NCBI GenBank assembly: GCA_021299635.1
Contig: JAJTFA010000003.1
Span: 78,079 to 142,078, forward strand
Source of the DNA: Sphingobacteriales bacterium
GTDB lineage: Bacteria; Bacteroidota; Bacteroidia; UKL13-3
Direction: 5' to 3'
DNA length: 64,000 nucleotides
Position 1 is the stretch's first letter. The number at the start of each line of letters is the position of its first letter. A program made the position numbers and the translations under genes. This document shows positions 17,216 to 30,013 of the stretch, one piece after another. Below the pieces are notes generated by a model. That model was given only the letters and a program-made list of their open reading frames with translations. It was not told where the DNA came from and ran no database searches.

Positions 17216-20200
17216 ATGAAACACGCTTACATCTATTCATTGAGAAAAATTCCAGTTCTCTTAGGGCTGATTTTTTCCACCTTTCTGGCAATCTTGCCCG
17301 CAAGAGCGCAGATTCTTTGGTCAAACAATTTTGATACTGTGGCTGCCCCACTTGGTACGGGAAGCAGTTACGTCCAAACTACAGGTACCCTTGCATTTAC
17401 AAGGGTTACAACTAGCACCTTTACCACTCCGATCACAGGACCATATGCAGGTAGTGGAATGGGCATGTGGGATGCATACAACGGAACAAATCCCGGTGCA
17501 GGTGTTTTCACCAGTCGTAGTATCGATATTAGCGGTGTTACTCCTGGTAATGGGTTGAGACTTTCATTTTGGTTTTACAGGCATTCTTATTATGCAACCA
17601 CAACCGATTCAAGAGTGGCGATTAGATTTGGTAACACGAATGTATTTGGTACTTCAACTTTCGTAGATAGCGTTTATGCGTTCAACACCAGATATCCAGC
17701 TGTAAGCACTCCGGGTTGGTATAGATATTCTTTTGATGTACCTAGTTCCTTACTAACTGGCCCTAATTTGTTTGTATTCTTGCACGCAACAGGCGACTGG
17801 TGGAATAACATTTGTATTGATGAAATGACATTATTTCAAACTTCGCCATTTATTTATTCATCTACTATTGTTGAGCAGCCAACTGCACTACCTGCAGGTG
17901 CGGGGAGTTTAAATCAACAAATGCTAGCAATTAAAATTGCATCAACAGGCGTAAACTCGCCTTCGGTAGTTAGTAATTTCAATTTTAGCACAACCGGAAC
18001 TACACCATCAAATGCTATCAGCAATGCACGCTTGTATTATACAGGTAACTCTCCAGTTTATGCGCAAACCAATCAGTTCGGTCCAACCGTAGCCAACCCT
18101 TCAGGATCTTTCAGCTTTAATGGTACGAGAACTTTAGGAGCCACAGGAAATCCATCCGATACCAATTATTTCTGGCTGGCTTATGATGTCAATAGTGCGG
18201 TTTCAAGCGGTGTAATTAATGGTGCATGCACCGGTTTAACTGTTGGTGGTGTTTCTCGCACCCCTTCACCAACAACTCCTCCGGGAGCGGGCAGAACGAT
18301 TTTAGGGCCATTATCGGGCAACTATACAGTAGGAACTTCAGGTCCGGCCGATTTTCTTACCATTACTGATGCTGTTTCTTCAATTGGAAGCCGTGGTATT
18401 AACGGTAATGTTACGTTTAATTTAATTGATCAGATATATAATACTGCCAGAGGTGAAGTATTCCCAATCGTTATCAGTAATGTTTTGGGATCAAATCCTT
18501 CAAGAAGCATTACTTTCAGACCATCCAATAATAACACCGTATATATAACAGATAGTAACAATACAGGTATCTTTACTATACAAGGCACACGCAATGTGAT
18601 ATTTGATGGTCGCTGGAACAATGATAACGGTCGTAACATGACCATAGAGAACCGCTCATTAAATGGAACGGCCAACGTTATCTTGGTTCGGAATGAAGCC
18701 AATGGTACTACCATCAGAAATACAGTAATCCGTTCTTCATCTCAAAATACCAACACCGCACCAACATCGGCTGCGCTATATATAGGTGGTACAACCAACT
18801 TAATAGGTAATGGTAATGATAGTATTATTATCCGCAGCAATACGTTTGCTCCGGCAGATACTTTTTATTATTCAACCGCTATCGGTATTACAGGTCAATC
18901 ACTTACCCAGCAAAACGACTGGATTAGCATAGACTCTAATTGGTTTTATGGCCACAGGGTTTATGGTATTTTCACGAATTCACTTAACTCGGGGGTAGGA
19001 CGTCAATACAGCATAACAGGCAATAGTTTTTATGATACCATAGCAGTAACTCCGGTTCCTGCGAGGTTTGGTTATGCTGCATTTAATCATGCAGATATTT
19101 TTATGAACCCCAGCAATGCCAACTCATGGGGGCATCAGATTGTGGGTAACTATATGGGTGGCCGTGCTCCATTTGTGGGGGGCTCAGGTACAGGTTTGCC
19201 TCGTCAGCTGGTGAATCCGGGTACATCCTCACCAAGCATTTATAAAATTTACTATAGTGGTTCTAATACCAACGCTGGAGCGGTTATCAGGGGTAATGTA
19301 ATTTCCAATATCATCTATAATGAAAGAGAAACGGCCAGATTCTATTATCCTTATTATATATATACCAGCACAGGATATGTTGATATAACAGATAATATTA
19401 TTGGCCATGCAACCGACACCAATAATATACGTTTTGATAACAATAGCGGTGCAACGCTATATATGTATTATATGTTCCACAGTGCACCCGGAGATATTAA
19501 ACGCAACCTTATTTCAGGGCTTACCATAACCTCCAATACTGCTGTAGGATTTGTGGGAATGGCACATTTTGGTACCACCATTGGAACATTAAATGTGGAT
19601 AGCAATACCATCACCCGCTTTTTTACCAGATCCAGTTCTACTTCGCAAGGTATAGGCGGTGCTTTCTGTGGTATAGGTATTTCTAACGGATCGCCAACAC
19701 TTAATATTAGAGGTAACCGCATAGGCGGCACCAACCCTGCCGATAGTATCTCGGTATACAGTTCAAATCCGCTCACACCACTCGTTTCTGTTCCTGCAAG
19801 TACACGTATGGGCGGTATTGTAAATCAGGCAGGTATTGCCGTTATTTCAAACAATATCGTTGGTAACTTCTATTCCAATACCAATGCCCCTTCCGGTATG
19901 GCTAGTTCATCCCAAATTGGTATCTACCAACAAAGTGGTACCGGTGGTTCTATTGTTTCCAATAACCTTGTTACCGATTTTAATGCATATACTGCAGCTT
20001 CTACCTCACAGTTAGGTATTGCTTCGGCAAGTGCTTCCATTTTAATGCAGGGAAATACGGTAAGAAATTTCTTTACCAATAGTAATAATACCTTTACCAC
20101 TACCAGTGCTGCAATAAATGGTATTGCAATAAGTACCTCGCAACAGCATAATATATTTAACAATAACATTTTTAACCTTAATGCTTACAATACTGCAGCA

Positions 20201-30013: not shown

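Follow-up and report, generated by a model that had tools for sequence, protein, structure and literature searches.

The locus and its flanks

A single ORF at 17216..30013 (+ strand, as for all features below except the opposite-strand ORFs) occupies 12.8 kb of the window, the 64,000-nucleotide stretch of DNA that was analysed, which comes from an uncultivated freshwater Bacteroidota bacterium. It encodes a protein of 4265 aa with no internal stops and a composition dominated by threonine (13%), asparagine (11.5%), glycine (11%) and serine (10.5%). Reading on from an in-frame stop at 17192-17194, the first start codon encountered is the ATG at 17216. The same 4265-aa ORF is present on at least five contigs, and syntenic orthologs in other species are intact at 4259 aa and 4255 aa, giving a range of 4255-4265 aa across independent assemblies and species. 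Compared with a related locus (L002), dN/dS is ∼0.09 across the entire gene length. The 12.8-kb ORF is real, uninterrupted and held by purifying selection.

The adjoining genes encode endonuclease I and an AHSA1-like protein. The giant gene is preceded by an intergenic leader of 252 bp (16964..17215) with a GC content of 25%. This contains a terminator-like hairpin at ∼16987..17017, GCCGCCCCGA-ACGT-TCGGGCCGGC, with A6 before it and T7 after it, which terminates the upstream T9SS (type IX secretion system) endonuclease gene and insulates the giant gene. Downstream, a strong intrinsic-terminator-like hairpin at 30037..30080 (hairpin and T-run at 30037-30070) has a 15-bp stem with 11 G-C pairs and a 4-nt loop, followed by TATTTTTAT. 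The leader lacks a -7 box of the Bacteroidota type (TAnnTTTG). The sole strong sigma-70-like match (17185-17214) ends 1 nt short of the ATG and is implausible as a promoter because it abuts the start codon; it is probably a chance match, and promoter-like matches in the region are no commoner than in shuffles (48 versus 47.9). Three ORFs on the opposite strand (20042-20440, 22534-23049 and 27841-28461) have no family matches, and since each antisense frame contains 151-393 stops they represent occasional gaps. The original prediction had described the uninterrupted ORF, the AT-rich upstream region of ∼250 bp, the strong terminators on both sides and the artefactual nature of the opposite-strand ORFs, all of which are borne out.

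Domain organization of the protein

The first 31 residues (17216..17308; MKHAYIYSLRK-IPVLLGLIFSTFLAILP-ARA/Q) form a Sec/SPase I signal peptide, recognized by inspection from an n-region containing K2, R10 and K11, a hydrophobic core of 17 aa and a cut site at ARA/Q32. A Gln residue at +1 agrees with the Bacteroidetes Q-rule for signal-peptide cleavage (PMC5837995), and a signal peptide with Q at +1 was found in 12 of the 12 orthologs inspected. At the extreme C terminus, a T9SS type-A C-terminal sorting domain (CTD; aa 4181-4265 plus the stop codon, 29756..30013) is matched at aa 4185-4262 by both TIGR04183 (38.2-41.8 bits, cut-off 23) and PF18962 (37.1-40.7 bits, cut-off 27). The Sec signal peptide and canonical CTD predicted from the outset are therefore both in place, with the CTD above curated cut-offs, and they support T9SS export of the protein. 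Three further CTD-bearing ORFs are present in the window, suggesting that the organism uses T9SS, and no core T9SS machinery genes were found among the ORFs scanned within these 64 kb. Some type-A cargo is set free into the medium and is not anchored. Attachment to A-LPS has been described for type-A CTD cargo (PMC9143113, PMC10202324), and we infer that the giant protein would be secreted and anchored at the cell surface.

The mature protein begins with a head domain (aa 32-215, 17309..17860) that is predicted by structure modelling to be a beta-jelly-roll and whose model appears to resemble MAM domains and the gingipain K1 'cleaved adhesin' domain. Confidence in this model is moderate (pLDDT 67 and pTM 0.48 from an alignment of 8 sequences). 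No sequence-level match of the head to Cleaved_Adhesin, MAM or any curated adhesive-domain HMM was found in Pfam or NCBIfam, and a PDB sequence search yielded no informative relatives. The modelled fold suggests a putative distal ligand-binding tip. The head is followed by a BNR_assoc_N-type beta-sandwich (PF14873; aa 221-330, 17861..18220; 29.3 bits, cut-off 25). N-terminal domains differ among positional orthologs and include DUF7402/F5_F8-like, fn3 and unassigned types as well as combinations with BNR_assoc_N; the head has been exchanged at locus L001, where stalk identity is still 55-77%. Thus, the stalk is conserved family-wide and the head is variable.

The stalk contains three modules, at aa 336-1334 (18221..21217), aa 1476-2330 (21641..24205) and aa 2471-3330 (24626..27205), of which the first is the longest owing to insertions of ∼100 aa relative to the other two. 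They correspond to the three tandem copies of a ∼990-aa supermodule that had been predicted, and a periodicity close to this value was recovered when the protein was compared with itself by BLAST: module 2 is shifted by 986-1017 aa with respect both to module 3 and to the back half of module 1 (lowest E 3e-29). However, the full range of offsets is 986-1098 aa rather than a constant ∼990, the front halves of modules 1 and 2 being separated by 1075-1098 aa; modules 1 and 3 are offset by ∼2105 aa. Pairwise protein identities between modules are 30.7, 29.4 and 23.7%. A blastn comparison of the gene with itself detected no similarity between modules, and the 2.97-kb period is therefore present only at the protein level. 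The lone blastn self-match (68.6% over 169 nt) lies within the TIG array described below, which is the sole site of weak DNA-level repetition in the gene. The triplication is real but old.

At the level of fold, structure prediction presents the modules as three-strand rungs stacked into a right-handed helix, and their assignment as beta-helices of the pectin-lyase fold comes from these models. In the AF2 model, module 2 has ∼21-22 rungs. With that number per module and a sequence period of 30-38 aa, the total comes to ∼65-70 rungs and not the 'hundreds' originally envisaged. Nor was the expected Beta_helix match obtained, as no Pfam or NCBIfam beta-helix model (Beta_helix, NosD or Pectate_lyase) matches any module, even at E≤1. 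A PDB search with the module profile (A1) yielded no informative relative, only a weak match to 9rx2 ('Parallel beta-helix repeat protein', E 3.8e-5). Module 1 ends in an NPAEGMGD...DIGA cap (aa 1295-1328) and module 2 in an NPAERSGD...DIGA cap (aa 2287-2319). The idea that such a motif closes every copy consequently holds for modules 1 and 2 and fails for module 3, in which the C-terminal cap motif is degenerate. The NCBIfam model choice-of-anchor Q (NF041518) scores 18.9 bits on the whole protein, below its cut-off of 25, with the best stretch at aa 1287-1328 in the module 1 cap, and scores 14.4 and 9.9 bits on modules 1 and 2 as separate pieces; as judged from these sequence scores, the likeness is a resemblance only. 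Across 14 orthologs, 377 stalk positions are near-invariant, among which Gly (102), Asn (86) and Ile (47) dominate, and conserved charged residues occur only in the caps and Ig spacers, with none in the central rungs. From this alignment the stalk appears to contain no conserved catalytic site.

An Ig-like spacer had been anticipated after each copy. Modules 1 and 2 are indeed each followed by a beta-sandwich, and none follows module 3. Spacer 1 (aa 1335-1475, 21218..21640) is modelled as an Ig-like beta-sandwich (aa ∼1359-1431) with a low-confidence linker, and spacer 2 (aa 2331-2470, 24206..24625) is a homologous sandwich and linker; the sandwich occupies module residues 31-103. Module 3 leads instead into X3, an unassigned segment of ∼100 aa (aa 3331-3430, 27206..27505), and then into four tandem IPT/TIG domains at aa 3431-3510, 3511-3591, 3592-3671 and 3672-3751 (27506..28468; PF01833). 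These repeats are 80-81 aa in length with mutual identities of 44-58%. The presence of a TIG array is clear (109.9 bits for PF01833, cut-off 20.9), although the number of repeats is four and not five, as both Pfam (four stretches) and an HMM derived from the repeats themselves (exactly four, aa 3431-3751) agree. A fifth TIG domain was accordingly rejected; X3 is not TIG by sequence, with just its last ∼20 aa resembling a TIG C-terminal strand.

The original prediction listed the TIG domains and the CTD for this end of the protein. Between them lie ∼430 aa, comprising two domains that were missed earlier, and the C-terminal third of the protein is more complex. The first, CX (aa 3752-4072, 28469..29431), is an N/G/T-rich domain without assigned function that is also found, in Lacibacter luteus among others, in a stand-alone protein with the order CX-FN-CTD and a length of ∼483 aa. 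The second (aa 4073-4180, 29432..29755) is a putative FN3-like domain, the fold being assigned from its sequence pattern, and it adjoins the CTD throughout the family. A PDB sequence search with the C-terminal region returned no informative relatives.

A large family and a divergent gene body

The original prediction regarded the clean triplication as an unusual architecture, a view that does not stand. The order helix1-Ig-helix2-Ig-helix3 recurs in no fewer than 13 clusters defined at 50% identity, in which 36 of 39 modules are positional orthologs, and the three-module order spans three GTDB species. Relatives with 2 to 7 or more modules form 1781 clusters (50% identity, E≤1e-3). Full-length relatives were taken from the representative search, the matches listed for module 2 all being ≤1751 aa; a query with the single protein retrieved three related loci. 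Relatives with source names are 'hypothetical' proteins of uncultivated MAGs, none of which is characterized. The family is thus large, unstudied and structurally ordinary, and the giant protein does not reveal a mechanism of a new kind.

The gene body is an island of divergence, with a dS of 1.85 compared with 0.3-0.7 in the flanking genes, and between close genomes its DNA identity is 65-78% compared with 88-96% for the flanking genes. Strain variants differ in tight patches. Intragenic gene conversion was rejected as the source of these patches, which match their own locus best, with no other rung or module being better, and an L002-type allele was likewise rejected as donor.

One possibility, which we raise tentatively and consider rather doubtful, is that the gene body is a hypervariable island of the replacement type, encoding a fibre under negative frequency-dependent selection in freshwater Bacteroidota that acts as a modular 'adhesin chassis' with a swappable head. 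Homologous recombination would swap the stalk and head lying between two conserved flanks, the housekeeping genes upstream and the FN3-CTD cassette downstream, with breakpoints near 14.9 kb and 29.3 kb; within populations, short mosaic patches would also be acquired. The driver could be that the fibre is the dominant exposed structure and serves as a phage receptor or grazer target besides its role as an adhesin. The three-helix stalk with its swappable heads would then define an uncurated family of >1700 clusters.

Proposed function and relation to known surface proteins

Por_Secre_tail is a recognized anchor of fibrillar-adhesin-like proteins in Bacteroidetes (PMC8286594). The giant protein combines this anchor with a stalk of three helix modules, two Ig spacers and four TIG domains, and we think it fairly probable that it is a cell-surface fibre, a fibrillar-adhesin-like protein; the adhesin or surface-fibre role put forward in the original prediction is likely. 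The pre-protein would cross the inner membrane via Sec, and cleavage after ARA31 would expose Gln32, which is probably cyclized to pyroglutamate. The T9SS would recognize the type-A CTD and move the chain across the outer membrane, where, by analogy with characterized type-A cargo, a PorU-type sortase would remove the CTD and join the new C terminus to anionic LPS. In the resulting mature chain of ∼4150 aa the order from the cell outward would be the FN3-like domain, CX, four TIG domains, X3, beta-helix 3, an Ig hinge, beta-helix 2, an Ig hinge, beta-helix 1, the BNR_assoc_N sandwich and, at the distal tip, the jelly-roll head. With three beta-helices (∼21-25 rungs and roughly 10-12 nm each) and ∼9 Ig-like domains, the stalk would be segmented and semi-rigid, a rod with an estimated length of several tens of nm, and would hold the head out towards a ligand, for which a glycan or particle surface is the likeliest candidate.

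The protein could alternatively be a passive surface coat or spacer brush that has no specific ligand and shields the outer membrane against phages, grazers or surfaces, its alleles turning over rapidly to escape recognition. The high dS and low DNA identity of the gene body relative to its flanks, together with the tight-patch differences between strains, form a pattern typical of exposed structures under frequency-dependent selection, and would suit such a coat. That divergence fits an adhesin doubling as a phage receptor equally well, however, and the distal heads have binding-module folds and are swapped among orthologs, which suggests that ligand specificity matters. We therefore consider a coat unlikely.

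Many polysaccharide lyases and hydrolases use a beta-helix as their catalytic fold, and jelly rolls of the MAM and CBM types frequently serve as accessory modules of enzymes too. Polysaccharide lyases and hydrolases are among the top structural matches, and a surface-tethered array that degrades or modifies polysaccharides, in which at least one beta-helix is a catalytic lyase, hydrolase or epimerase and the jelly roll and BNR_assoc_N domains are carbohydrate-binding modules, has to be weighed. We judge it quite improbable. The central rungs contain no conserved acidic/basic cluster in the 14 orthologs, the invariant residues being G, N and I, and even at E≤1 there is no match to the lyase, hydrolase or Beta_helix models of Pfam or NCBIfam. 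The query-normalized TM-scores are low (0.15-0.2), and the non-enzymatic beta-helices Vag8 and PfbA score equally well or better. Three to seven serial helices with Ig hinges are moreover stalk-like and not enzyme-like.

SprB of Flavobacterium johnsoniae is a protein of 6497 aa. The giant protein resembles it superficially as a giant (>4000 aa) T9SS-dependent surface filament of Bacteroidota, as would be expected of a mobile gliding-motility adhesin of the SprB/RemA type driven by the gliding machinery. However, the features of SprB include a type-B CTD, SprB repeats and sprF as partner gene, whereas the CTD here is of type A (TIGR04183) and Pfam and NCBIfam scans gave no matches to a type-B CTD (TIGR04131) or SprB repeats. 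Type-B cargo requires PorP-like partners (PMC9143113) and no sprF/porP-like gene is adjacent, the neighbours being those named above, all of which makes a gliding adhesin very improbable. Finally, a non-functional or misassembled ORF, arising as a compositional artefact or through chimeric assembly of repeats from the metagenome, might be suspected from the breaks in the gene at contig ends in many other assemblies and from patchy strain differences that could be assembly chimeras, but is scarcely credible given the identical-length ORFs on separate contigs, the syntenic orthologs, the low dN/dS and the absence of DNA-level repetition able to mislead an assembler.

The fibrillar-adhesin-like reading places the protein closest to the Por_Secre_tail fibrillar adhesin-like proteins of Bacteroidota described by Monzon et al. 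(PMC8286594, PMC9210967), which are likewise long single chains with an N-terminal signal peptide, a repetitive TIG/Ig-like stalk, a C-terminal T9SS anchor and, at the end away from that anchor, a putative binding domain. Unlike in those proteins, ∼2700 aa of the stalk form three long right-handed beta-helices, not Ig-like repeats alone, which lie outside any Pfam stalk-domain model, and the head is recognizable by predicted fold only. If this reading is true, the protein exemplifies giant beta-helix fibres with a T9SS anchor, a very large family that occurs in environmental Bacteroidota and in some other phyla. The core module of ∼1000 aa is covered by no Pfam or NCBIfam model, and a curated one would allow thousands of giants now called 'hypothetical' to be annotated better. 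With its conserved stalk, swappable head and divergence island, the locus would also be a candidate marker for how the surfaces of lake bacteria differ between strains, which bears on their attachment to particles and their interaction with phages or grazers.

Beta-helical passengers of type V secretion, for example Bordetella Vag8, pertactin, FHA and the autotransporter UpaB (PMC6488583), were also compared. In contrast to these adhesins, which use a beta-barrel translocator or TpsB, the giant protein has a T9SS CTD, rungs of 30-38 aa and three serial helices with Ig hinges, and no sequence homology is detectable. Compared with the gingipain 'cleaved adhesin' domains K1-K3 (Porphyromonas gingivalis Kgp/HagA; PDB 4itc), identity is ∼15% with no match to Pfam Cleaved_Adhesin, and the protein carries a single head on a giant stalk where gingipain is a protease-adhesin polyprotein. 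Although it is a tandem multi-helix protein without conserved catalytic residues or a sequence-model match, it has its fold class in common with pectin-lyase-fold polysaccharide lyases and phage tailspike depolymerases (PL6, Pel9A and the HK620 and P22 tailspikes), and its cap motif, ...D..G..R....DIGA, resembles choice-of-anchor Q.

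The giant gene and its domains

The giant gene is one uninterrupted ORF of 4,265 codons (window positions 17216–30013, plus strand), as originally predicted: frame 1 contains the terminal stop alone, each of the five other frames contains 151–393 stops, and the orthologs at the homologous loci of two related species (L001 and L002) are intact. The encoded protein is rich in threonine (13%), asparagine (11.5%), glycine (11%) and serine (10.5%). The proposed AT-rich upstream region and flanking terminators were also found, as a 252 bp intergenic region of 25% GC and hairpin plus T-run structures on the upstream (∼16987–17017) and downstream (30037–30070, 15-bp stem) sides. 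The Bacteroidota promoter box TAnnTTTG is absent upstream of the gene, where no convincing promoter was seen, and the best sigma-70-like match stops one base short of the ATG. The NCBI record (MCE2787326.1, ‘IPT/TIG domain-containing protein’, 4,224 aa) places the start at GTG 17339 (aa 42) and so loses the signal peptide. Reading on from the in-frame stop at 17192–17194, the first start codon encountered is ATG 17216; this start produces a typical signal peptide with ARA|Q at its end and agrees with the N-terminus of the L002 ortholog. In all orthologs inspected, glutamine directly follows the predicted signal-peptidase site, which is the +1 residue of the Bacteroidetes Q-rule (PMC5837995).

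The signal peptide (aa 1–31) is followed by a head domain with no Pfam, NCBIfam or PDB sequence match (aa 32–215), a BNR_assoc_N domain (aa 221–330; 29.3 bits versus a cut-off of 25) and three homologous modules (aa 336–1334, 1476–2330 and 2471–3330, by self-BLAST and three-way alignment) separated by two homologous Ig-like spacers (aa 1335–1475 and 2331–2470, by self-BLAST and alignment). A ∼100-residue segment without domain assignment (aa 3331–3430) precedes the IPT/TIG repeats (aa 3431–3751). The repeats number exactly four, not the five first counted: Pfam PF01833 (109.9 bits) and NCBIfam NF058597 (114 bits) each cover four stretches, and an HMM built from the repeats gave four matches and nothing else above 0 bits. 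The C-terminal part comprises an N/G/T-rich domain of unknown function (CX, aa 3752–4072) with no match in Pfam, NCBIfam or PDB, an FN3-like domain (FN, aa 4073–4180) and the T9SS type-A CTD (aa 4185–4262), which scores above the cut-offs of TIGR04183 (38–42 bits versus 23) and PF18962 (37–41 versus 27). The FN3-like domain is paired with the CTD throughout the family, and the CX-FN-CTD cassette (window 28469–30010, aa 3752–4265) also occurs as an independent ∼483-residue protein in cultured Chitinophagaceae (Lacibacter luteus) and many metagenomes. The structural reading of the original prediction mostly holds, with several counts wrong.

A long antisense ORF lies across the TIG-repeat region in both genomes (window 27841–28461, minus strand, 206 aa; L002 16339–17373, minus strand, 344 aa), and the window copy had no family match in a Pfam scan. 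Most likely, these antisense ORFs arise incidentally from T/S/G/A-rich codons.

Triplication and fold of the modules

Self-BLAST of 300-residue chunks of the protein gave matches at offsets of 986–1017 aa between aa 1069–1950 and aa 2067–2970 (E down to 3e-29, 33–36% identity), of 1075–1098 aa between the front of module 1 and module 2, and of ∼2105 aa between modules 1 and 3. In a three-way alignment, identity is 30.7% between modules 1 and 2, 29.4% between modules 2 and 3 and 23.7% between modules 1 and 3, with ∼100 aa of insertions in module 1. The NPAE...DIGA cap, expected to close every copy, does so in modules 1 and 2 only (aa 1295–1328 and 2287–2319) and is degenerate at the end of module 3. 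No DNA-level similarity was detected between modules, as anticipated. Together, the self-BLAST matches, low module identities, degenerate third cap and lack of DNA-level similarity demonstrate that the triplication is real, ancient and imperfect. The proposed ∼990-aa period describes modules 2 and 3 fairly, and only those.

Since the beta-helix models of Pfam and NCBIfam did not match the modules even at E≤1, the structure of module 2 and its preceding spacer (aa 1329–2330) was predicted from a 14-sequence alignment (pLDDT 72, pTM 0.76). The model places an Ig-like beta-sandwich at module residues 31–103, followed by a low-confidence linker, ∼21–22 predicted three-strand rungs and a C-terminal cap. 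Every structural neighbour of this model is a right-handed parallel beta-helix, and Foldseek matches to it include PL6 lyases (E 2.4e-5), GH87, the HK620 and P22 tailspikes and the adhesin PfbA, so the proposed beta-helix fold is supported by structure prediction but not by family models. By sequence autocorrelation, the rungs repeat every 30–38 aa in all three modules, which with the model amounts to roughly 65–70 rungs in the whole protein instead of the hundreds initially suggested.

Across 14 orthologs, 377 stalk positions (the beta-helix and Ig-like part) are near-invariant, mostly glycine (102), asparagine (86) and isoleucine (47). Conserved charged residues are confined to the caps, last rungs and Ig spacers of these orthologs and are absent from the central rungs. 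This pattern points to helices that serve a structural role, although single lineages may have an activity of their own.

Orthologs, family and variable head

A 99.65%-identical full-length variant is present on four other contigs, and many other assemblies contain contig-end fragments of the gene only. Scanning one genome per GTDB species identified three related species. L002, a Lake Mendota ‘Bacteroidia’ MAG, has an intact 4,259-aa ORF in a fully syntenic locus (purL, T9SS endonuclease, giant gene, prfA and onward), L001 has an intact 4,255-aa ORF and L003 a partial copy. Comparison with L002 (pN 0.149, pS 0.686, dN/dS ∼0.09) reveals purifying selection on every domain; the giant gene is real and functional. 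In L001, the more distant relative, a second giant T9SS ORF (55–7233, plus strand; at least 2,392 aa, its N-terminus cut by the locus end) precedes the ortholog and has a C-terminal tail of the same FN3-like/CTD type, suggesting that giant surface-protein genes lie in tandem.

Searched exhaustively with HMMER, module 2 matched 1,781 representative clusters at E≤1e-3, of which 501 reach E≤1e-30. Many of the matched clusters are 3,000–6,300 aa long with several matched stretches. When pieces of the giant protein were mapped onto the top matches, the order helix1-spacer-helix2-spacer-helix3 was common to at least 13 different 50%-identity clusters, in which 36 of 39 modules scored best against their positional counterpart. 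Because this positional orthology persists in lineages now only 35–52% identical over the stalk, the triplication predates them. Other relatives have 4, 5–6 or at least 7 modules (P0070, P0073, P0082 and P0094). Given the shared order and varied module numbers, the architecture, first described as unusual, is typical of a large uncurated family. Ortholog tails have the TIG-CX-FN-CTD arrangement in some cases and run directly from helix 3 to FN-CTD in others. The named relatives are from uncultivated Bacteroidota and have only generic names in their source records (‘hypothetical’, ‘beta strand repeat-containing’, ‘T9SS type A sorting domain-containing’). More distant module homologs are found in Verrucomicrobia (Prosthecobacter), Acidobacteria and Ignavibacteria.

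The N-terminal ∼330 aa lack conservation among positional orthologs. The relative P0076 and L002 share the head of the giant protein, while other orthologs have DUF7402/F5_F8-type-C-like domains, other unknown domains followed by BNR_assoc_N, or fn3. The head of L001 is replaced (30% ‘identity’), yet its stalk is still 55–77% identical. An AF2 model of aa 31–370 contains two predicted beta-sandwiches (pLDDT 67, pTM 0.48). In P0222, a Dolichospermum sp. MAG fragment whose place in a cyanobacterial bin may come from an attached Bacteroidota contaminant, BNR_assoc_N lies between a helix C-cap (…DIGADAGNF) and the next helix N-cap; thus this domain can be an inter-module spacer and is not necessarily ligand-binding.

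Proposed surface role and divergence island

We propose that the protein is exported by Sec with cleavage at ARA|Q, translocated by the T9SS via its type-A CTD and, by analogy, attached covalently to anionic LPS upon CTD removal, as established for type-A cargo of P. gingivalis and relatives (PMC9143113, PMC10202324). The product would be a segmented rod, made of three beta-helices (each roughly 10–12 nm) together with about nine Ig-like domains, that holds a swappable jelly-roll head at a distance from the outer membrane. This would be the layout of fibrillar adhesins, in which a stalk carries an adhesive domain at its distal end and is anchored at its C-terminus; Por_Secre_tail is a recorded anchor of this kind in Bacteroidetes (PMC8286594). 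The predicted folds, conservation pattern and signals come from this analysis; localisation, length and binding are inferences. We conclude that this is a genuine and clearly bounded gene for a giant T9SS cargo protein, and that its product is an uncharacterised protein of a known kind, the T9SS-anchored, fibrillar-adhesin-like giant proteins. What gives it modest value is the uncurated ∼1000-aa module family, together with head swapping and a local divergence island. Among the window ORFs that were scanned, none was a T9SS machinery gene and three were further type-A CTD cargo genes: a 1,234-aa LamG/PKD protein (1623–5327, minus strand), an 824-aa endonuclease I whose gene directly precedes the giant gene and is syntenic in L002 (14489–16963, plus strand) and a 453-aa YHYH-domain protein (45504–46865, plus strand).

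DNA identity to L002 is 88–96% in the flanking housekeeping genes, drops to 76–83% inside the endonuclease gene from about position 14,870, is 65–78% across the whole giant gene and returns sharply to 84–94% where the FN3-like-CTD cassette begins, at about 29,300. Synonymous divergence follows the same pattern, with a dS of 1.85 for the whole giant gene, 0.28–0.33 for its FN/CTD part, 0.68 for purL, 0.33 for prfA and 0.43 and 0.63 for two genes further downstream. Same-species variants of the protein from other metagenomes contain tight patches of ∼80% identity inside otherwise ∼100% identical sequence, at aa 695–785 (window 19298–19570), 1276–1319 (21041–21172), 1686–1782 (22271–22561) and 2103–2146 (23522–23653). 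The island and patches fit an exposed surface structure that undergoes mosaicism and replacement by recombination, although the patches could be metagenome-assembly chimeras. Internal paralogous rungs and the L002 allele were both rejected as patch donors. Within the otherwise ∼89%-identical purL, identity to L002 dips to 72% at 12066–12465; a further short recombination tract or a gapped stretch of the alignment may explain this.
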